Below are positions 9,059 to 19,566 of a stretch of DNA of 64,000 bases, in pieces. The stretch is from a virus: IMG/VR virus record IMGVR_UViG_3300025617_000009, positions 1 through 64,000 of that record, one strand, 5' to 3'. The number at the start of each line of letters is the position of its first letter. The first letter of the stretch is position 1. The notes under the pieces were generated by a model. The model ran no database searches. It was given only the letters and a program-made list of their open reading frames with translations, and was not told the origin of the DNA. Position numbers and translations under genes: made by a program.

Positions 9059-10486
9059 TTAATCAGTATCTAGATTGTTTAAAAACTGCTTGAGTTTGGT
9101 AGAACTTGCTTCTGCTTGTATCTTAGGCGCAGCTTTGCCTTCATCTGGAGTGTCACTAGATTGTATTGGTTTAGAACCTCCACGTTTGAGTGCATCTACA
9201 ATACTGTTGCTTCCGCTACTGCTAGTTGCTGTTGCCGGTGCATCTTCGTCTTCGCCTAGATCAAATATACGCAGTGTGTCTACATCAAAGCCTAGATCAA
9301 TCTTAGCACCTACGCCACTTGAACTACGTGTTTTCATCAACTGGATTTGATAGCGTCCACGTTCACGCATAGCACGACTTGTAAAGATACCAATCAAGTT
9401 ATCTGCTGTATTAATCTTAGATATACCGCCCGAGATGTGCGAATGATCAAATTCAATCTCTTCTACACTTGATCTGTTCAACTGACTTGCTGTAACAAAG
9501 ATACAGTTAAGTTCCATTGCCAAGTTACGTAGTTCTTCTGACACATACTTGTCTTTGACAAACAAGTTCTCTGCAGATATCTTTTGTCCAAGCGGGTGCA
9601 TAAGATCCAAGTAATCAATTAATAATACGTCTACTTTACGTCCTGTTTTAATTTCATATTCTTTTAGATAAGCTCTAACGTCATTAGCATTCTTGCCTGT
9701 AGGCATATATTTGACCTGGAAAGCACCTGACTTTTTACCGATCATGCGTACTTTCATTTCAACATCGTCGATGGTTTTAAAGATGTCTCTGCTAGGTATG
9801 TCTGTGGTCATCGAATCAAGGCGCATACTAACTAGATTTTCACTTAGCTCAAATGTCAAGTATAATACATTCTTACCTTGTAAACACCAGTTCACACCCA
9901 TGTTTGCCATAAACAAACTCTTACCAGAACCTGACCCACCTGCAAAGATATTCAGTTCGCCTCTGTTGAATCCGCCAAATAACTTACGATCTAAAGCAGG
10001 CCACCCTGTGCTCACTTGTCCGTTCTTGTCTTTGATTGCTTCGAGTCGAGCTCTAGGATCAGCAAAATAATCTGTACCTAGATCTTTTTGTAAGCCAATT
10101 TGTACAGCACTCTTAACAAGTTCTTCACAACGTCCATACTCACCTTTCTCTAATAGGTCTGCTGAGTCAAGGATTGCTTTCTCTAGTGCTTTGTGTTTGG
10201 CAAATGTTTCAAAGTCTTGTAGCAACCAGTCATAGTGATTCTCTGCTAGTTGTCCTGGGTCTTTCAAGTCTGTATTTGTAGAAGCATTAACAATTTCAAA
10301 TGTAGGTAATGCGTTATGCTCTTCTACATATGTTTTAATAAACTTAGCTGGTTCTTGTAAACGTCTATCAAATGTGTTAGGATCAAACACACCCTGACAG
10401 CGTACAAAGCTCTCAGCGTCTGTCATAAACATTTCTAGATATACTCGTTGTATGTCGTAACCGTAGTCTGTGTTCTGTCTTGTCAT
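9059..10486 (-). CDS. gp41: Replicative DnaB/gp41-like helicase
   Basis: Walker A GGSGSGKS, LIDYLD, TASQLNR, MKTRSS motifs; STGWPALD. Confidence 0.92.
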   Translation of the reverse strand: MTRQNTDYGYDIQRVYLEMFMTDAESFVRCQGVFDPNTFDRRLQEPAKFIKTYVEEHNALPTFEIVNASTNTDLKDPGQLAENHYDWLLQDFETFAKHKALEKAILDSADLLEKGEYGRCEELVKSAVQIGLQKDLGTDYFADPRARLEAIKDKNGQVSTGWPALDRKLFGGFNRGELNIFAGGSGSGKSLFMANMGVNWCLQGKNVLYLTFELSENLVSMRLDSMTTDIPSRDIFKTIDDVEMKVRMIGKKSGAFQVKYMPTGKNANDVRAYLKEYEIKTGRKVDVLLIDYLDLMHPLGQKISAENLFVKDKYVSEELRNLAMELNCIFVTASQLNRSSVEEIEFDHSHISGGISKINTADNLIGIFTSRAMRERGRYQIQLMKTRSSSGVGAKIDLGFDVDTLRIFDLGEDEDAPATATSSSGSNSIVDALKRGGSKPIQSSDTPDEGKAAPKIQAEASSTKLKQFLNNLDTD

Positions 10487-10492
10487 CTTATT

Positions 10493-10521
10493 ATTATATT
10501 ACCTATGCCATACTTTGTCAA
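10493..10521 (-). promoter_or_regulatory. sigma70-type promoter for the helicase (probably leaderless)
   Basis: TTGACA-17nt-TATAAT, then 6 nt to ATG 10486. Confidence 0.8.
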
Positions 10522-11464
10522 TGTTTGTAAACTGTTTTGATTTTGCCAATACTGCACCTATGCACGATCCAGGATCGCCCGGGTTCTTAGGTACATGTAC
10601 TGTTTCCCAGTAAGGGCGTATTTTATCTACGGCCCGACGGTTAAGAGCGCCGCCTCCTGCTAGGGCTAGATTATCTGCACCTGTGTACCAACTAGCCCAC
10701 ATACTTAATCCTTGTAGTGCGTCTTCAAACAAGTCCTGGGTAGTAGCCGCTAAACACCCTAAGGCCCGTTCACTGCTTATCCCTGGGCGTAACCAGTTGC
10801 ACCCTCTATGTAGATTTATCTTAAACCGCCAACTAGGGTCTGCATAGGTAGGCATCTTTTCTATGACCTCTGACATCATCATACTGCGAAAGTGGTCAGG
10901 GTCGTAACCTTCACCCATGCCCGCTACCATGTATTCATCTCGCTGTGCTACCAGCCCAAGGCGCTGTGTCATAGCAGAGTAAAATAATCCTGGGCTGTGA
11001 GGATATCCTTGGCTAAAGATTTTTTTAAGTTTGCCTTGTTGTCCGTGCCATATTGTAAGTGTTTCAAACTCGCCTATGCTATCTAAACAAATAATTGCAC
11101 AATCGTCATGCGGTTGTGTATAGTAAGCATACGCGGCATGACTATGATGATGTTGTGTATACATTATTTTGGGATTGCGTATACCACGTTCTTGAAAATA
11201 TCTTTCTATATCATTCTCTTTAAACAACCAGCCTTGTCCAGCCCATAACTGTCTAACACTTTTTAAGAACGGGCGTTCGTACCATATGATATAACTAGGA
11301 TAACCCCAGTGTTCTATAGCATAGTCTAGCAGTTCTTTGTTTAGGTGAGGGTCGTTGGGTATGCCTGAAAAATCTTTGGCAAGCCCTGCCCACACTAATG
11401 TGTCGTAACTGAATACAGCCAGACTAGCATCGTGACTGTTACCTACTGCTCCCCAAGTAATCAT
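10499..11464 (-). CDS. Carbamoyltransferase, NodU/CmcH family, N-terminal (Kae1-like) domain only
   Basis: HDAS, YERP, HHHSHAAYAYY, DSIGE, GLFYS, GGGALN, PGDPGSCIGA motifs; ends at 321 aa without the C-terminal domain. Confidence 0.85.
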   Translation of the reverse strand: MITWGAVGNSHDASLAVFSYDTLVWAGLAKDFSGIPNDPHLNKELLDYAIEHWGYPSYIIWYERPFLKSVRQLWAGQGWLFKENDIERYFQERGIRNPKIMYTQHHHSHAAYAYYTQPHDDCAIICLDSIGEFETLTIWHGQQGKLKKIFSQGYPHSPGLFYSAMTQRLGLVAQRDEYMVAGMGEGYDPDHFRSMMMSEVIEKMPTYADPSWRFKINLHRGCNWLRPGISSERALGCLAATTQDLFEDALQGLSMWASWYTGADNLALAGGGALNRRAVDKIRPYWETVHVPKNPGDPGSCIGAVLAKSKQFTNIDKVWHR

Positions 11465-11583
11465 TTGTAGATAAAAGGATCCCGTTTTTTAAGTTCGTCT
11501 AGTCGTTTTTTAAGTTCACGATGTTCCTTCCATTTTTTATACGGAAGTAGTATAAGTTCTTTAAGTTTTTTCAAATAAACCAT
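11461..11583 (-). CDS. 40-aa basic peptide ending KKRDPFIYK, coupled to the carbamoyltransferase
   Basis: Not in the ORF track. MVYLKKLKELILLPYKKWKEHRELKKRLDELKKRDPFIYK*; ATGA overlap with the carbamoyltransferase start; fills the gap after primase. Confidence 0.75.
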   Translation of the reverse strand: MVYLKKLKELILLPYKKWKEHRELKKRLDELKKRDPFIYK

Positions 11584-12554
11584 TTCTTTGCTCTCAGTCT
11601 AATTTTAAGTGGAGACTCTTCTGCTGAAGTTACAATACTATGTAAAGTATATAGTCTACCGTACTTATCTACAGCATCTCCTATATCATTAATGTCTTGA
11701 CGCCATTCGGGCATGCTCACTGACCATCCTAGTTCAATAGCTCGCTCTACAAGTTTGCTTCCTGCTTTATCTCTATCAGGAACTACAATAATCTGTTTTC
11801 CTAGTCTATTCAACAACATTGCTTGTTGATCTGATATTTCACTGCCGCCTAGGGCACAACCTTCAATGTGTATAGCATCTACCTGTCCTTCGCAGACAAT
11901 AGCAAATATCTTATTGTAGCCTTGATTATCTAAACCATATACAAAGCCAGGTTGTACTTCTGTGAGATACTTGGGCTTCTTGTCAGGTACTACACTTCGT
12001 CCTGTCCAACCTACTATGTTGCCTTCGTAGTAGAAAGGAATGATAAGTCTATCACGGTAACCTAGACTAGGCGACCAGTAATAGTCAGTGTCATCTACAT
12101 TCAAATGACGACTAGCCATGTACTCTAACACAGCCATTGAGTACTTGTCAAAGTCTGTAATGTCTGTAATCCTAACAGCATCCTCAGGCAGAGGCACAGG
12201 GCGGAATGAAGGTAGTTGGGCTATGCGTGTTTGTGCCTCTACTCCTTCGTTCTCCCTCATCACTTCCAACGCCACCTTATTGACTATGTCGTCAGGCGCT
12301 CCCATCCATTGTAGGAGTTTCCGTAACTTGTGAGAGAGATTACGCCCTGGTTGCCAACTTGCTTTAAAGCCACAGTTAAAGCAGTGGAAACTAACGCCGC
12401 CGTCTGGGTTTGATATGAGTCCGCCACGCTGTCTAGTATCTGCACTTGTACCATTATGGTGACAGCAAGGAGCATTAAAACTAATCCATCCACTAGGAGT
12501 AGTCTTACGCTTGGGCGGTAGATATGTCAGAACTGTGTCAGATACAATACTCAT
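11571..12554 (-). CDS. gp61: DNA primase (Zn finger + TOPRIM), gp61-like
   Basis: CCH...HCFNC zinc-binding region, RLIIPF, GWTGR, PKYL, CEGQVDA, PDRD, DIGDA. Confidence 0.88.
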   Translation of the reverse strand: MSIVSDTVLTYLPPKRKTTPSGWISFNAPCCHHNGTSADTRQRGGLISNPDGGVSFHCFNCGFKASWQPGRNLSHKLRKLLQWMGAPDDIVNKVALEVMRENEGVEAQTRIAQLPSFRPVPLPEDAVRITDITDFDKYSMAVLEYMASRHLNVDDTDYYWSPSLGYRDRLIIPFYYEGNIVGWTGRSVVPDKKPKYLTEVQPGFVYGLDNQGYNKIFAIVCEGQVDAIHIEGCALGGSEISDQQAMLLNRLGKQIIVVPDRDKAGSKLVERAIELGWSVSMPEWRQDINDIGDAVDKYGRLYTLHSIVTSAEESPLKIRLRAKKWFI

Positions 12555-13383: not shown

Positions 13384-13755
13384 ATGTTAACAAAAGATAT
13401 TAAAGAAAATTTTCCATTTATTAGCGTAGTAACATATGGCGGCAACGAATATGTTGGAATCATCACGAATCAAGATCAATACGTAACTTGTATGTACAAC
13501 TATGCCTTTTTAAAAACTCAAGAAGAAAAGAAACTTTTATTAGATCTTGGAGAAATATGGTGGTGGGAAAGTAATCGTCTGATACCCATTAATATCTTTC
13601 TAAGGCAAGAATTAGAACCATTAGCATATTCTGTGTTAACTATGAATTCTAAAGATGTTGTTGTTAGTATAGGTCCTACAGTCAATTTAAATAACATGAC
13701 GTTAAAAAGAGTAAAAAGAAAATCTGTACAATTAATTAAAAAACCTAAAAATTAA
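13384..13755 (+). CDS. Hypothetical phage protein (WWWESNR motif)
   Basis: 123-aa ORF filling the gap between genes; plausible composition. Confidence 0.7.
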   Translation: MLTKDIKENFPFISVVTYGGNEYVGIITNQDQYVTCMYNYAFLKTQEEKKLLLDLGEIWWWESNRLIPINIFLRQELEPLAYSVLTMNSKDVVVSIGPTVNLNNMTLKRVKRKSVQLIKKPKN

Positions 13756-14470
13756 ATCTTCCACTTCTTTTATTAATATTATTTTTTGTAAACTTCTTAT
13801 CGCCGGCAGCATGTGTTAATATGCCTTTGACATGCTTGCTTTGGAAATACCCTCTACCTTTAACGTCCTTGTTTAAATCATTACACATCATATGTGTGCA
13901 ACATTCGGGCCATATATGTCCGTCCCAAGTTTTAGGTTTGTTCCATACTTCTCCGCTATCGTAGATACTTAACATGTTATCTACCAGTTGCTGTCTTTGT
14001 TCAGATGTGCCTGCTATAACAAATAATCCTGTTTCCCAATGAGTCATTCTATTTTGTATTTCTACGTGAACTGCTAGATCATATCCTGCAAGTAATAATT
14101 TGTCAATGTCTTTTTGTATAGGCTTGTGTGTTTGTGTGTCGGCATCTAGCCATATTACAGGTTCGTCCGTTTTTAATATTAGATCACAGATAGCATATAC
14201 CTTATGACTCCATCGCAAACCTTTTAGATATTTGTTTTTAGTTTTTTTATTTTGTTCAAGATTTATTAAAGACTCAGTTTTATTTTTAAACAACAAAAAA
14301 TTTTCTTGTTTGTCTAAATCAATGTTAATTATGCGGGCGTGATCTACTGGACAATCTTGATGATACACATATAGAGTACTGTCTTCAGGCCAGCACCGCG
14401 TCCAAGATTCTATAAACTTGTTAGCATAAACGTTCCAATGATCTTTGTGAAAACTGGTTATACATATCAT
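13745..14470 (-). CDS. GT-A glycosyltransferase (WLDAD), paralog of 21650 and 22408
   Basis: ITSF, SHKVYAI, WLDAD, ETGLF, WDG motifs. Confidence 0.72.
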   Translation of the reverse strand: MICITSFHKDHWNVYANKFIESWTRCWPEDSTLYVYHQDCPVDHARIINIDLDKQENFLLFKNKTESLINLEQNKKTKNKYLKGLRWSHKVYAICDLILKTDEPVIWLDADTQTHKPIQKDIDKLLLAGYDLAVHVEIQNRMTHWETGLFVIAGTSEQRQQLVDNMLSIYDSGEVWNKPKTWDGHIWPECCTHMMCNDLNKDVKGRGYFQSKHVKGILTHAAGDKKFTKNNINKRSGRFNF

Positions 14471-15033
14471 TGTAGCTCCTCACATAGTAAGTTCATATGC
14501 ACTACACAAGCCATTGCGTAAGACACAGCATGAGCTTTCTTGAAGTAGTATTCACCGTCCTCTGGTTTAATCCACACTTCCTTTCGTATAGTCGTCCACG
14601 GTTCGTTCATGAGGTGTCTTTTTGCCGGACGGATTATAGCGAGGACTGCTGCCAGATCCTCTACGCTTCGTGGCTTCAAACTGCGCAAGACGTCTCCGTG
14701 CCCCGAGAGATGAAATACGTTGTTTACGAAGTCGTCGTGTTCTAGAAGTTCCCATAATGGCTCCTTGTTCATCAACGCTAAGAGATGTTCTTCATCTCTT
14801 ATATCTTTATATATGCTAACATTGAGAAAGTCTAATTTAAAGTATCCGCGCTCTTCTGCACTTTTATAATCTATTGTACTTAAATTATCAACAGGGTTAT
14901 GTGGAATTTCTGTAACGTACACACCAGTGTTGTGTTTCTTTTCTGTGTCAAGTTTTGCAACACGATGATTTATTTTAGATAAAATTAAATCCCTGTCAGG
15001 GAAATCTATATCAATATCTGGAAGATCTATCAC
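14467..15033 (-). CDS. Miniature DNA polymerase III alpha (DnaE)-like catalytic protein
   Basis: PDIDIDF, KHNTGVYV, GYFKLDFL, LAIIRP, YYFKKAHAVSYA: the ordered DnaE palm/finger motifs in only 188 aa. Confidence 0.85.
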   Translation of the reverse strand: MIDLPDIDIDFPDRDLILSKINHRVAKLDTEKKHNTGVYVTEIPHNPVDNLSTIDYKSAEERGYFKLDFLNVSIYKDIRDEEHLLALMNKEPLWELLEHDDFVNNVFHLSGHGDVLRSLKPRSVEDLAAVLAIIRPAKRHLMNEPWTTIRKEVWIKPEDGEYYFKKAHAVSYAMACVVHMNLLCEELQ

Positions 15034-15779
15034 AGATTGGATTCCTTGGAAATATCTTTTACCAGTTGTACATCACTTGGACTTCGTTTAAAACGCAGTG
15101 CCCAATGTTCCGGGTTAATAACATGATAAACCATTTCTAGTTGTTCGTCATTAAATTTACTTAGCATTTCTTTTCCGCTTTTACAATTTAAAATAAGCCA
15201 CGGAGATATTTTGCCATCCTTGATATGCCATACTGCTCTGTTGAGACTTACATGCTGGAAATAATGATTCCACGGTGCAGGTTCGTTTTCTTCTGCCCAC
15301 TCCATCATTGTCTTTACACTTCTTTCTAATGCTGTTGTTACATCTTCTTTGAGAATAAATTCTAGTACATATTTTTCATATAAACTATCTTTTGCCCAGT
15401 GATCTAGTTTAACGCCACTAGTAACAACATAGTCTATGTATTTTTCTGGATACAACGGTTGCACATTATTAAGAAAACTACCAAACTTAACAAAAGCGTT
15501 GTAATACTGACTGTCAACAAAGTCAGCATAACTTTTTTCTTTCTTTGCTCCTGCGCTGAGAATATAGAATCTCTGGAAGGCGTATAAGCCGTATCTTACT
15601 CGCTTTTCATCTTTTTGTAGCCATCGTCTCTTTTTTTCACACATATGTGCCGCAAGAGTTTTTTCTCTTACATAACTTGTGCCGCAATATTCGCACTTGT
15701 ATTTTTTATCAGAGTTTGACGTCAATGTTATGTTCTTCAGCCAGTTGCTTGAGTTCTTTTTTTGTATATAGTCCAGCAA
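15030..15779 (-). CDS. Hypothetical protein with N-terminal C2HC zinc finger (true start probably near 15725)
   Basis: CEYC-x12-HMC; coupled by overlap to mini-DnaE. Confidence 0.7.
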   Translation of the reverse strand: MLDYIQKKNSSNWLKNITLTSNSDKKYKCEYCGTSYVREKTLAAHMCEKKRRWLQKDEKRVRYGLYAFQRFYILSAGAKKEKSYADFVDSQYYNAFVKFGSFLNNVQPLYPEKYIDYVVTSGVKLDHWAKDSLYEKYVLEFILKEDVTTALERSVKTMMEWAEENEPAPWNHYFQHVSLNRAVWHIKDGKISPWLILNCKSGKEMLSKFNDEQLEMVYHVINPEHWALRFKRSPSDVQLVKDISKESNL

Positions 15780-16161
15780 GTAGCTCTACCTCTTTCTGTT
15801 TCATGTTAGGATGGATTTGTTCTAGTAGTTTTACTGCTTTGTTATTGTCAGCAGTTGCTTTCTTTTTGAAGCCTTGCCAAGGATGATATTCTATCTTACC
15901 TGTAGCACCACTCATACAAAGCAGTTGCCATTGTAATTGAGGATGCTTGCTTACTTCCATGTAGTTTTTATTAAAGTATTCATTGGTTTTAAACACAGCA
16001 AGTTCTTGTGCTTCTCTGTTGCCGCTGACATTACTAACATATCTATTCAGCAACCAAAAACTTACTTGTTTCTTTTCTTCGTCGCTTAGTTCCTTCCAAA
16101 CAGATTTTGCACCCATGTCTATTGCCGCTAGTATGTCTTTGATTGGAAGTTTATTTGCCAT
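15709..16161 (-). CDS. Clamp loader small subunit, gp62-like
   Basis: FWLLNRYVS...N...KHPQLQWQLL...HPWQGFKKK pattern and length resemble the T4 gp62 family. Confidence 0.6.
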   Translation of the reverse strand: MANKLPIKDILAAIDMGAKSVWKELSDEEKKQVSFWLLNRYVSNVSGNREAQELAVFKTNEYFNKNYMEVSKHPQLQWQLLCMSGATGKIEYHPWQGFKKKATADNNKAVKLLEQIHPNMKQKEVELLAGLYTKKELKQLAEEHNIDVKL

Positions 16162-16537
16162 CTATGTATTTCCACACTGAATCTGTTTCTAATCTGTAAC
16201 TACCTGCAAACTTATATCTATCCCATCTATCAGGTTCTATTAAACTTAGTATATACTCATTGCCGGTATAATACAAGTGATACGTTTGTCCAACAATAGG
16301 AACAAAGTTAAATCGTGCTTGATAAACTAGTTGAGTATCTTCTGCTAATTTTGCTAATCTAAAATACTCTTGTTTGATTTCTTCTAGTTTGCTTTCTAAA
16401 TGATGTTTAGCTTCGATTCCTCGTCCTGTTTTGAATCCGCCTACATCAGGTAATACAATAGCAGGAGCACTTACATTACTTCCGTAAGGTAAAATATTTG
16501 CGTCTTCTGCAAAGTTGTCAGGACGTTTATTTGCCAT
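16151..16537 (-). CDS. DUF2452-like protein
   Basis: LPYGSNVSAP and FVPIVGQTYHLY...LSLIEP motifs. Confidence 0.7.
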   Translation of the reverse strand: MANKRPDNFAEDANILPYGSNVSAPAIVLPDVGGFKTGRGIEAKHHLESKLEEIKQEYFRLAKLAEDTQLVYQARFNFVPIVGQTYHLYYTGNEYILSLIEPDRWDRYKFAGSYRLETDSVWKYIDGK

Positions 16538-16784
16538 CTTTTATAATATAGTATAGTTCGACAGTTTTGTCAAGTTGCTTTTTAAGAGTAGGATGTTGCT
16601 CTGCTAGATCACATAACTTTTCCCATTCTCCCCAATGTAGTAGTTTGCCTTGGGCTCTTGCTACACCTCTAGGATCCCCGCCTATTATCCAGCGGGGTAT
16701 CTCTGGTTTGTCTCGATAACGAGCGTAGACAACACCGTCATGACGCTCATATATCAACGGCTCGCCTGGAAGCAGTTTAGCCAT
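16527..16784 (-). CDS. Hypothetical protein
   Basis: MAKLLPGEPLIYER...; start chosen at ATG 16784 overlapping the upstream gene end. Confidence 0.65.
   Translation of the reverse strand: MAKLLPGEPLIYERHDGVVYARYRDKPEIPRWIIGGDPRGVARAQGKLLHWGEWEKLCDLAEQHPTLKKQLDKTVELYYIIKDGK
16545..16573 (-). promoter_or_regulatory. sigma70-type promoter
   Basis: TTGACA-17nt-TATATT, then 7 nt to ATG 16537. Confidence 0.6.
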
Positions 16785-17583
16785 TATTAATAGCAGCAAT
16801 AATGTCTGCTTTCTTCATGCTAGCATTAACTTTAATGCCTTTTGATTTAGCATGAGCTAACAAATCATTTTTTGACATGCTATCTAAGTCTGCAGATTTG
16901 GTTGCTTGCTTAGTTGCTTTAGTCGATGTCTTAACAGGAGCTCGTGCCTCTTTAATGGACACAGGTGCTTCTGACGCTGATATAGCATCTTCGCCTAGGC
17001 GTCCTGCAATAGTACGTAACAAAATACCATACATAGGCAGGAAGATAACAAGACCTACAATAATTTTTAATACAGTCTGTGATCCTGCAATCTCAAACCA
17101 ATGCTCCGCCATATACGGATCTGCTGAGTTATTAAATGCAACAGCAAAGAACGTGTAACTATCAATGATGTTTGCTACAATAGTTGACAGTGCAGGCGCC
17201 GCCCACCATGCTTTGTAGTTTTCACGAATCCATTGGAACACATACACGTCAAGGAATGTACCTACTGCGTATGCTGTTGCACTTGCAAAGCCAATACGTA
17301 GTGCTACACTTTCAGGTGCACCTTCTGCTAATACTACAGCAATACTGCCAATAATAGCAAACGGATATGCGGCGGCAATAGTTGCTCGTGCAATACCTTT
17401 ACCTAGTAAGCGAACTGTTAAGTCAGTTGCAATAATAACAAGCGGGAATGTAAACGCCGCCCAAGTTAGTTTAACGCCAAAAAACTCAACTGGAATGTTG
17501 ACTAATGCGTTCGATACTGTGATAACAACTACATGAAGTAGTGCTAGTTTTAGCATCATTACTTTATCTATGTCTTTAAACAT
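16777..17583 (-). CDS. yhhQ: preQ0/preQ1 transporter (YhhQ/Vut_1) with C-terminal HeH/Rho-N-like extension
   Basis: SNALV, TWAAFTFP...TDLTVR, RIGFASATAY...LDVYVF, WWAAPALST...IDSYTFF; multiple transmembrane segments; tail LDSMSKNDLLAHAKSKGI...MKKADII. Confidence 0.88.
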   Translation of the reverse strand: MFKDIDKVMMLKLALLHVVVITVSNALVNIPVEFFGVKLTWAAFTFPLVIIATDLTVRLLGKGIARATIAAAYPFAIIGSIAVVLAEGAPESVALRIGFASATAYAVGTFLDVYVFQWIRENYKAWWAAPALSTIVANIIDSYTFFAVAFNNSADPYMAEHWFEIAGSQTVLKIIVGLVIFLPMYGILLRTIAGRLGEDAISASEAPVSIKEARAPVKTSTKATKQATKSADLDSMSKNDLLAHAKSKGIKVNASMKKADIIAAINNG

Positions 17584-18102: not shown

Positions 18103-19566
18103 TTAATTCCAATCTATTTTTTCTATTGTAAAAGGATATTGTGCATCCTTGTAAAACTTCTTACGTTGTGTAAGATGTCGCTTTGCAAATTTACAGCTAC
18201 TTGTAATATCCCATATCTGTACAAAGTCTTTGTCTTTTGCCTTTCTTACGCCTCTGCCTATACTTTGAATTACCCTAACAAAACTTTTCCCAGGCTCAAT
18301 AAGCACGAGATTAAAAATACGAGGAATATTAATGCCAACGGCGGCAACACCATATGTTGCAATAACCACATGATTGTCTGCTTGATTAATTTCATCATAT
18401 GCTTCTTTTCTGTCTTTAAGTTTAACATCACCTTTGACAAACACTGAACCTTCAATGCGTTCTTGTAACATTTCACCTGCACTAATCCTGTCTACAAGAA
18501 TAAGTGTGTTACCTTCTTGTCTTACATTGTTGAGCAGTTTTGCAATATAGTCAATCCTGTCTGTGTTTGTTACTAGGTATTTTAATTCTGATTGATAATC
18601 TCTATGTGCTACAGTATCTATAAGCTGACAAATGTTTACATGGCAGTTGGATAATACACCTTTATCTTGTAGTTCTTTTGCTGTGATCTGTCCAATAACA
18701 GGACCAAGACTTGCGTGGATACTTTCAAACTCAAACGATTCTTTAGGCACTGTGCCTGTTAGTCCCCAACGGATAGGTGCATTGCGTAGGTTGCGTGTAA
18801 GCAAGTTCTTGAGAACTTCTGCTTTAGCTTGGTGTACTTCGTCGACAATAATAGTGCTTACACCGTCTAAGAACTCTGCGAGGCTTAGTACTGCACTGCC
18901 GTCTTTGAACTTCTTGTCTAGAATGTTCAAGCTCTGCCATGTACAGATAGTGTGAGTCTTACCTAACTCTTTCCTGTCTCCGAAGTACACCCCTACATCC
19001 AAGCCGCAGTTGCGATAGTCTTCTTCTGTTTGTGTAACAAGTGATTTGTTAGGCACAATAACTAGACTACGTCCATACGGCTCACTAATATGTGACAAGG
19101 TTGCTGTGGTAATTGTTTTGCCTGCACCTGTTGCAATCTCTTGCAGGCTCTGTGGGTTTTGTAGAAAGTTGTTTATTGCTTCAACTTGATAGTCACGTAG
19201 GATAATGTCTTCGCCTTCCGCTGGATGTCCTTTAGGCCATTTAACACCTTGATCCTTCCAATAGTTTTCTGTGATCGTTTCAAAATTTAAATCTACAGGA
19301 TGCCGTCTATCTTCAATGTCTACAATTTCAACATTATTTTTTTGTAGTACTTCTACAATTTTGTCTAAATGATTAACATAGCCTGTGCCACCTATTCCAA
19401 AGAATGCAACTTTACCATCCCAACGCCCAAGTTTATACTGAGGCATATATCGTGCATAAGGTACTTCAAACTTCAGCGCAGAACTGAGCTTTCTCCTTAT
19501 GTCTACATCGAGTCCTTCGAGTTTGATGTTTACTTCATCTTCAATGATAAGTTTACAAGTTGCCAT
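18103..19566 (-). CDS. uvsW: UvsW-like SF2 DNA helicase
   Basis: LRDYQ, ATGAGKT, DEVH, GLTGT, QSIGRG motifs. Confidence 0.9.
   Translation of the reverse strand: MATCKLIIEDEVNIKLEGLDVDIRRKLSSALKFEVPYARYMPQYKLGRWDGKVAFFGIGGTGYVNHLDKIVEVLQKNNVEIVDIEDRRHPVDLNFETITENYWKDQGVKWPKGHPAEGEDIILRDYQVEAINNFLQNPQSLQEIATGAGKTITTATLSHISEPYGRSLVIVPNKSLVTQTEEDYRNCGLDVGVYFGDRKELGKTHTICTWQSLNILDKKFKDGSAVLSLAEFLDGVSTIIVDEVHQAKAEVLKNLLTRNLRNAPIRWGLTGTVPKESFEFESIHASLGPVIGQITAKELQDKGVLSNCHVNICQLIDTVAHRDYQSELKYLVTNTDRIDYIAKLLNNVRQEGNTLILVDRISAGEMLQERIEGSVFVKGDVKLKDRKEAYDEINQADNHVVIATYGVAAVGINIPRIFNLVLIEPGKSFVRVIQSIGRGVRKAKDKDFVQIWDITSSCKFAKRHLTQRKKFYKDAQYPFTIEKIDWN

Follow-up and report, generated by a model that had tools for sequence, protein, structure and literature searches.

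An uncultured marine giant phage carries a conserved gene that probably encodes one half of a split minimal DNA polymerase III alpha subunit

We analysed a 64,000-nucleotide stretch of DNA (the window; positions 1 to 64,000 of IMG/VR virus record IMGVR_UViG_3300025617_000009) from an uncultured marine giant phage, which carries on its minus strand a small relative of bacterial DNA polymerase III's catalytic alpha subunit (Pol III alpha, or DnaE). We call this 188-amino-acid (aa) protein the C-unit, and a second small DnaE-derived protein encoded by related phages the N-unit. The window belongs to a 115-kb contig that is 31% complete. An earlier note on this DNA, made from the letters alone, had placed the C-unit in T4-like surroundings, and the gene does lie within a T4-like replication module, the window containing UvsW, UvsX, a gp32-like single-stranded DNA-binding protein (SSB), a primase and DnaB. 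The C-unit gene and the principal members of the module are as follows:

14467-15033, minus strand: predicted C-unit of a split minimal Pol III alpha, 188 aa (phrog_11778; AlphaFold2, Foldseek and VIA-align; conservation; omega, the ratio of nonsynonymous to synonymous change, dN/dS)
15030-15779, minus strand: C2HC zinc-finger and all-helical protein, a 249-aa open reading frame (ORF) (phrog_11058, E 2e-65)
18103-19566, minus strand: UvsW-like SF2 helicase, which heads the conserved module (Pfam ResIII, Helicase_C and UvsW_N; phrog_16)
11571-12554, minus strand: DnaG-type primase with Zn ribbon and Toprim, downstream in the module (Toprim_2, DNAG_N)
9059-10486, minus strand: DnaB-like (T4 gp41-type) replicative helicase (DnaB_C, E 3e-21)

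The C-unit gene overlaps both of its neighbours: its GTG start codon and the TGA stop of the upstream zinc-finger ORF share the sequence GTGA, and its own TGA stop and the ATG of a downstream 241-aa ORF share ATGA. Its product contains, in order, every motif that the earlier note had read from it (PDIDIDF, H..GV, K.DFL, A.IRP and Y.F.K.HA..YA), as PDIDIDF at residues 5-11, H34..G37-V38, K66-L-D68-F-L, A132-I-I-R135-P136 and Y162..K165..H168-A..Y172-A173. These include the DxD metal-binding strand (D6 and D8), the K66/D68 pair and a reduced fingers region (R135-P136, K165 and H168). Residues 6-186 match positions 8-194 of the 197-position profile phrog_11778, annotated 'DNA polymerase' (E 1.3e-62), and the protein also weakly matches phrog_405, a DnaE family of 1,190 positions. 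Among Pfam families, DNA_pol3_finger alone is detected, at a sub-threshold 19.6 bits against a cut-off of 22.

Structural comparison places the C-unit firmly among the bacterial replicases. An AlphaFold2 model built from a 74-homolog alignment has a mean predicted local distance difference test score (pLDDT) of 96.8, and the Foldseek comparison with DnaE and PolC that the earlier note had suggested returned only Pol III alpha and PolC. The best 15 matches in the PDB are all Pol III alpha (Taq, M. tuberculosis and E. coli), and the first nine have a probability of 1.00 (4IQJ, 2HPI, 3E0D, 7PU7, 5LEW and 2HNH being targets at this level). Pol III alpha or PolC accounts for every one of the 13 highest-ranking structural matches. 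VIA-align of residues 1-188 gave Z scores of 9.8 for Taq 458-837, 9.7 for M. tuberculosis DnaE1 416-807 and 9.5 for E. coli 398-780, covering 182-187 of the 188 residues on Pol III alpha; PolC was matched as well, and the next unrelated chain scored Z 3.4. A profile search of PDB sequences aligned residues 54-139 with E. coli 539-641 and residues 150-178 with 739-768.

The 188 residues cover a DnaE stretch of about 380 residues from which two parts have been excised, the thumb (about 433-510) and, from the fingers, about 100 aa (about 641-739). The chain ends at about E. coli residue 780, and PHP, beta-clamp-binding, HhH and OB domains are absent. The span on E. coli 398-780, the two collapsed stretches and the chain end confirm that, as had been described earlier, the PHP, thumb, HhH and OB domains and most of the fingers are gone. 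Like DnaE (2HNH, 2HPI/3E0D and 5LEW), the C-unit has Pol-beta-like palm strands with equivalents of D401, D403, D555 and K553, as well as both fingers motifs, RP at E. coli 639-640 and KSHxxAYA at 758-766. Unlike DnaE, which is about 1,160 aa long, it has neither tau-binding tail nor beta-clamp motif, leaves the GS-motif half of the palm to another chain and is not the main replicase.

The catalytic residues are also the most strictly conserved. Across the 74 homologs, which are 29-59% identical to the window protein, D6, D8, K66, D68 and P136 are invariant, and D10, H34, G37, R135, K138, K165 and H168 are conserved in at least 90%. K66 and D68 align to E. coli positions 553 and 555 both by profile and by structure; following the established E. 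coli numbering, we take D6, D8 and D68 to be D401, D403 and D555, and K66 to be K553. Against 80 IMG/VR relatives, synonymous sites are saturated (proportion of synonymous differences, pS, about 0.78) and nonsynonymous divergence (dN) is about 0.22; in 80 unsaturated pairs omega has a median of 0.15 and a maximum of 0.28. All 81 sequences remain in register over codons 5-155. A phmmer search of 1.8 billion representatives returned 427 C-unit clusters at E <= 1e-3, the full-length members of which are 185-215 aa long.

Purifying selection acts on the gene, which is not in decay. From the invariance of its catalytic residues and an omega of about 0.15, we regard it as a streamlined core rather than a decaying gene, as the earlier note had argued; the dN/dS and length comparison proposed there gave an omega of about 0.15 and lengths of 185-215 aa. 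A decaying remnant of a captured host dnaE, which the length of the C-unit (under a fifth of that of DnaE) might suggest, has next to no probability in our view, given a length fixed at about 185-215 aa across the 427 representative clusters, an omega of 0.15, invariant catalytic residues and the preserved register of 81 sequences. These conservation data rule out a remnant of this kind.

The C-unit is widespread in giant phages. By tblastn, homologs occur in 152 phage records, including 54 Streptomyces phage records in which the matches are presumably ordinary long DnaE genes; the others are jumbo myoviruses, namely PA5oct/Paride/MIJ3, Atu_ph07, Phosso, RaK2/K64-1, 121Q/PBECO4, GAP32, CBB, XacN1, SCTP-2 and RsoM2USA. 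The window protein is 52-56% identical to the PA5oct-type, Phosso and Atu_ph07 proteins. More than 550 loci in IMG/VR carry a relative, the best 80 at 71-83% identity, and near-identical DNA (0-3 differences over 13700-15519) was recovered in an independent seawater study from 2023.

The gene is thus real and conserved, but it is not new, as the arrangement has been published: a 'minimal split DNA Pol III alpha' of group 2.2 jumbo phages was described computationally by Iyer et al. 2021 (Viruses 13:63, PMC7824862). In the literature searched, this is the only description of the mini-Pol III, and no experimental work on it was found. The group 2.2 lineage comprises PA5oct, RaK2, 121Q, Atu_ph07, XacN1 and a large uncultured marine clade. 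Its C-unit (PHROG 11778; Paride_0017, Phosso gp437) forms a full-length family with the same DxD start and the same length as here, and the neighbourhood has the same order of UvsW, small ORFs, zinc-finger protein, C-unit, primase and DnaB. Relatives have in addition a distant N-unit and a co-resident family B polymerase, neither of which is on this contig. The present phage differs from the group 2.2 isolates in being an uncultured marine member, and its marine clade has a -1-frame ORF that is absent in Paride and Turkey3.

The C-unit cannot be a complete active site of the DnaE type. Its ORF begins five residues before the DxD and lacks the helix-GRGS-helix, which is the triphosphate-binding element of the Pol-beta-like fold. 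A phrog_405 scan of the Paride and Phosso records revealed a second small ORF, the N-unit, that corresponds to DnaE positions 362-436, immediately upstream of the DxD. It is 169 aa long in Paride and 177 aa in Phosso, has a C-terminal end of the form ...WGVGRGSSVASYVLFLIG...EFL and passes the Pfam threshold for PF07733 (37.1 bits, positions 21-94). Its motif WGVGRGSSVASY (a W-G-V-G-R-G-S-S-V-A-S-Y block) reaches at least 97% conservation across 56 distinct sequences, and 356 N-unit relatives are present in IMG/VR.

The distance between the genes for the two units varies widely. They lie 4.3 kb apart in RsoM2USA, 43 kb apart in Paride and 224 kb apart in Phosso; the distance is about 207 kb in G001, a 357.6-kb, 100%-complete IMG/VR relative whose C-unit is 73% identical to that of the window, and about 122 kb in a second IMG/VR relative, G002. 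The units occur together. Counts of isolates by host genus for N-unit, C-unit and zinc-finger protein are 34/34/33 in Escherichia, 11/11/11 in Pseudomonas and 10/11/11 in Klebsiella, and the three counts are identical in Erwinia, Salmonella, Xanthomonas and Yersinia. A 375-aa protein from an ENA metagenome, P0103, is a natural collinear fusion of the two: its first half is an N-unit (E 5e-22) and its second a C-unit, and PF07733 positions 12-121 are matched continuously over the split point. P0103 would be the smallest complete C-family catalytic core seen in this analysis. The earlier note had taken complementary dnaE fragments elsewhere as a sign of a simple split gene; a complementary fragment does exist in relatives, but this is not a simple split, as both pieces together amount to only about 360 aa.

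The surroundings of the N-unit gene recur as well. In Paride, Phosso, G001 and G002 it is followed by a gene for a small NARGD-LGPGG-motif protein and then by one for a GroES/gp31-like co-chaperonin, after which a MazG-like gene comes next in G001 and G002.

With homology, fold, the conservation of both half-sites, purifying selection, the co-occurrence of the halves and a natural fused form all observed, we put a probability of roughly 0.85 on the following interpretation: the ORF at 14467-15033 encodes the C-terminal, metal- and template-binding subunit of a two-subunit minimal family C polymerase confined to group 2.2 jumbo phages, the active site of which is completed by the distant N-unit. 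The C-unit would supply the beta-strands with the three catalytic Asp residues and Lys66, plus the pared-down fingers, and the N-unit (about 170 aa, encoded 4-224 kb away) would supply the helix-GRGS-helix that holds the triphosphate of the incoming nucleotide. To judge from the relatives, the N-unit of this phage is probably off the contig rather than absent, encoded on a part of the genome that the contig does not include. The multi-chain enzyme that the earlier note had envisaged thus survives in part: the C-unit would be one chain of several, but the chain that completes it is the distant DnaE fragment and not the zinc-finger protein.

The same evidence bears on a stand-alone minimal nucleotidyltransferase, an option raised earlier in which the ORF would act, perhaps in end modification or signalling, without any further chain derived from DnaE. 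The presence of all three catalytic Asp residues in one small, confidently folding chain would fit such an enzyme, as would the failure to find an N-unit on the contig. However, the ORF starts at the DxD strand and has no GRGS nucleotide-binding helix-loop, a GS element that is found in every Pol-beta-like transferase of the family; wherever enough genome is available this element is kept as a separate gene, in P0103 it is fused to the C-unit, and the contig on which it was not found is 31% complete. We therefore consider a stand-alone enzyme very improbable.

Several points weigh against the two-subunit interpretation. The N-unit was not found on the 115-kb contig by a G.GS regular expression, by tblastn with the Paride and Phosso N-units or with PF07733 and phrog_405. 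P0103 is the sole fused form among the 150 representatives listed, a singleton cluster on one 2.4-kb contig, and no relative of it was found in IMG/VR; a word-index search likewise found no longer, fused C-unit homologs, which is weak evidence by the tool's own rating. No biochemical report of polymerase activity or heterodimer formation for any member was found in the literature searched. Finally, with the thumb, some 100 aa of the fingers and every DNA- or clamp-binding domain lost, processive synthesis by the pair alone is doubtful.

In the two-subunit interpretation, N-unit and C-unit would come together without a covalent link to form a single Pol-beta-like active site of about 360 aa that lacks the PHP, thumb, clamp-binding, HhH and OB domains. 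Non-covalent assembly is expected because the pieces (about 170 and 188 aa) are too short to contain an intein half. Cyanobacterial dnaE is also split, and the products of two distant genes are joined by intein-mediated trans-splicing. The phage system resembles it in deriving a C-family catalytic subunit from two distant genes. The cyanobacterial pieces, however, are large halves that carry split-intein halves and are ligated to full length, whereas those of the phage measure about 170 and 188 aa, and the phage split falls within the palm, where it separates the GS helix from the DxD strand.

The likely setting of the enzyme is a replisome with a different main polymerase. The C-unit would be expressed within the T4-like module, in the order UvsW helicase, zinc-finger protein, C-unit, primase and DnaB helicase with further genes between, and the main replicase would be a separate family B polymerase (PolB) of about 900 aa. 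The module is conserved: the UvsW-like helicase and the DnaB-like helicase are syntenic in Paride, Phosso and Turkey3, and the genes syntenic to 11571-12554 are annotated as DNA primase in all three. Neither a family B polymerase nor a clamp loader was found in the window, and PolB was not found on the rest of its contig. The search for the main replicase that the earlier note had advised succeeded in relatives, G001 and G002 each encoding a family B enzyme of about 900 aa, but found none on the contig to which the window belongs. G001 also encodes a gp44-type clamp-loader ATPase.

The heterodimer may be a templated DNA polymerase, and the fixed place of the C-unit in the module between UvsW and the primase and DnaB genes suggests an accessory role beside PolB, speculatively in primer extension and hand-off, gap filling or recombination-dependent synthesis. 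It would probably need partners for DNA grip and processivity, or else act distributively. Firmicutes replisomes with PolC and DnaE similarly have a second polymerase beside the main replicase. A second polymerase encoded near primase and helicase functions offers a possible analogy for primer extension and hand-off, one that is functional speculation only, and the phage differs in that its main enzyme belongs to family B.

The best-conserved fingers residues, R135-P136, K165 and H168, align with the RP and KSHxxAYA motifs of DnaE, which in work on the Taq ternary complex are reported to line the deoxynucleoside triphosphate and template site. This makes templated synthesis a likelier function than a signalling transferase. 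The competing idea is that the assembled N-unit and C-unit form a repurposed nucleotidyltransferase in phage-host conflict, for instance a terminal transferase, nucleotide-signal synthase or decoy. Enzymes of the Pol-beta fold are often recruited for signalling, the loss of domains is extreme (thumb, clamp-binding, HhH and OB), and the phage would already have a full family B replicase, as seen in G001 and G002. Yet the fingers positions R135, P136, K165 and H168 are among the best conserved, the gene lies within a helicase-primase-recombination module in every lineage examined, and it is a core gene of the whole phage group rather than a patchy accessory. A repurposed enzyme accordingly seems to us improbable, if less so than a stand-alone one.

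An exonuclease gene is found near parts of this system in relatives. In G001 (239478-243092), a gene for a DEDDh (DnaQ/epsilon-like) exonuclease is separated by about 0.6 kb from that for the gp44-type ATPase and by about 1.7 kb from that for the N-unit, and in Turkey3 a gene annotated 'DNA polymerase III subunit epsilon' adjoins uvsW. This exonuclease may be a proofreading partner of the mini-Pol III, which itself has no exonuclease.

No smaller relative of the bacterial replicase is known than the split mini-Pol III, which belongs to the core genes of a phage group that is very large and found worldwide, with more than 550 IMG/VR loci and 427 clusters at 50% identity. What a two-chain C-family polymerase of about 360 aa does beside a full family B replicase is a testable question, and the system also bears on the evolution of the Pol III core. 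The window adds no new principle to this; it contributes a marine member, a natural fusion that links the halves, selection statistics and a candidate overprinted gene.

The candidate overprinted gene lies inside the C-unit gene:

14567-14755, minus strand: 62-codon ORF in the -1 (+2) frame within the C-unit gene, candidate overprinted gene (open frame, start and codon-use tests)

Its ATG is built on the W94 codon, with AAGGAG upstream, and it encodes a basic Ser/Arg-rich peptide. The frame has no stop in 76 of the 81 sequences, in which synonymous sites are saturated, whereas each of the four remaining overlapping frames is open in 0-6 of the 81. The start is ATG in 77 sequences, GTG in three and TTG in one. 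Under synonymous-codon shuffles, the probability of an open frame was 0.008 when the whole gene was shuffled and 0.088 when the region only was shuffled. Inside the region, T occupies the third codon position at 28.6% of harmless sites against 1.6% of sites where it would create a stop in the -1 frame; outside, the values are 45.4% and 43.7% (Fisher p 1.6e-93 for the avoidance, uncorrected for shared ancestry).

Selection that keeps this frame open in the marine clade looks real on these patterns. Counting against a conserved nested protein, conservation of the peptide sequence is poor and the region shows no reduction in synonymous divergence (0.51 against 0.46). The frame is closed in Paride and Turkey3. 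We give somewhat less than even odds to dual coding in the marine clade, in which a -1 ORF of about 62-67 codons, with its own conserved ATG and the Shine-Dalgarno-like AAGGAG, would yield on translation a fast-evolving basic peptide rich in Ser and Arg. As a speculation, the peptide could be a nucleic-acid-binding accessory of the stripped-down polymerase, in which case the mini-polymerase gene would carry its own cofactor in a second frame. This candidate is the sole new biology here. One 315-nucleotide contig in metatranscriptome run X20 is identical to 14475-14787; with DNA carry-over possible, we did not count it as expression.

Upstream of the C-unit, the zinc-finger protein has 5,110 homologs, mostly of 229-233 aa. 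The earlier note had called it a C2HC zinc-finger protein, and the four ligands are indeed conserved in classical spacing, C29-x2-C32-x12-H45-x-C47: in 42 sequences C29, C32 and H45 are invariant and C47 is conserved in more than 90%. Pfam zf-C2H2 scores 21.8 bits, under its cut-off of 25.2. The model (pLDDT 90.6) is all-helical with residues 1-20 disordered. Because most homologs are called 16-20 codons shorter and these residues are disordered, the TTG start of the ORF is doubtful and the true start is probably, though uncertainly, about 16-20 codons downstream. The TTG-started 5' end of the ORF shares a 71-nucleotide overlap (15709-15779, minus strand) with the 3' end of the 150-aa ORF upstream, and tblastn aligns both reading frames in relatives. 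A contig-depth peak at 15737-15833, considered as a possible conserved element, showed no excess nucleotide identity in 80 loci.

The fold of the zinc-finger protein gave no match above noise with Foldseek against the PDB or in a wide VIA-align search; BFVD returned only its own family, and the Atlas none. Weak matches within noise were lambda P (Foldseek, E 0.77), a BFVD 'loader of DNA helicase' (E 0.48) and the C-terminal domain of T4 gp59 (1C1K; VIA-align Z 3.5 over 96 residues, which is noise level for helical proteins). Pfam gave no gp59 match to the protein, and no recognisable gp59 was found in these phages. A role as helicase loader is a lead only.

The position of the zinc-finger gene allows a different role, as an obligate third subunit of the mini-polymerase that replaces the missing thumb or HhH DNA-binding parts, which would be compatible with the two-subunit catalytic core. 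The GTGA stop/start overlap in this phage and a conserved C2HC finger suited to nucleic-acid binding speak for it, as does the occurrence of the protein in 93 phage records with the same host-genus distribution, always upstream of the C-unit on the same strand. But in the close marine relatives L076, L043, L077 and L031, 0.5-2.4 kb is inserted between both genes, and the two are separated by about 0.5 kb in RaK2, GAP32 and CBB, by 3.6 kb in SCTP-2 and by 11 kb in XacN1. Co-occurrence weighs little in a single lineage with a conserved core order, and the structural hints, all within noise, point to helicase loaders. On balance we think an obligate third subunit unlikely.

The next gene upstream had been labelled a clamp-loader subunit:

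15709-16161, minus strand: 150-aa conserved protein, phrog_11758 (unknown function; E 5e-18)

The protein is homologous to a Turkey3 protein annotated 'sliding-clamp-loader small subunit' (hhalign 97.6%), but the label has no sequence support. PF16790 (Phage_clamp_A) was not detected at E <= 10 in the 150-aa protein or in its Paride, Phosso and Turkey3 homologs, where T4 gp62 as control gave E 3.5e-77, and no relationship to T4 gp62 was found by hhalign of two alignments (probability 0.1%) or by a PDB profile search. Besides the Turkey3 annotation, the one lead towards a clamp-loader role comes from the Atlas, where PF16790 is present on 13% of the members of a language-model look-alike cluster of the protein. 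G001 has a gp44 homolog with no gp62-like neighbour, so that the gp62 position is vacant there.

Four further genes lie in or beside the module:

10499-11464, minus strand: carbamoyltransferase N-terminal domain alone, between the primase and DnaB-like helicase genes
13745-14470, minus strand: 241-aa gene downstream of the C-unit
16151-16537, minus strand: 128-aa DUF2452 gene
16777-17583, minus strand: YhhQ/Vut_1-type (queuosine-precursor) transporter with a C-terminal Rho_N/SAP-like tail, within the replication module

The gene at 10499-11464 is not at the corresponding position in Paride, Phosso and Turkey3, and the 241-aa and DUF2452 genes have no counterpart in the relatives checked. We considered whether the DUF2452 protein and the 150-aa protein are halves of a 281-aa Turkey3 protein and rejected this: the extra length of the Turkey3 protein is an internal insertion, and the 128-aa ORF is absent from relatives and skipped in a variant contig. 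Variant contigs of the 2023 seawater study skip 13755-14479, which holds the 241-aa gene, with 4 nucleotides between, and a contig from another study skips 16163-16564, which holds the DUF2452 gene. Both genes look like strain-variable insertions that flank the conserved module.

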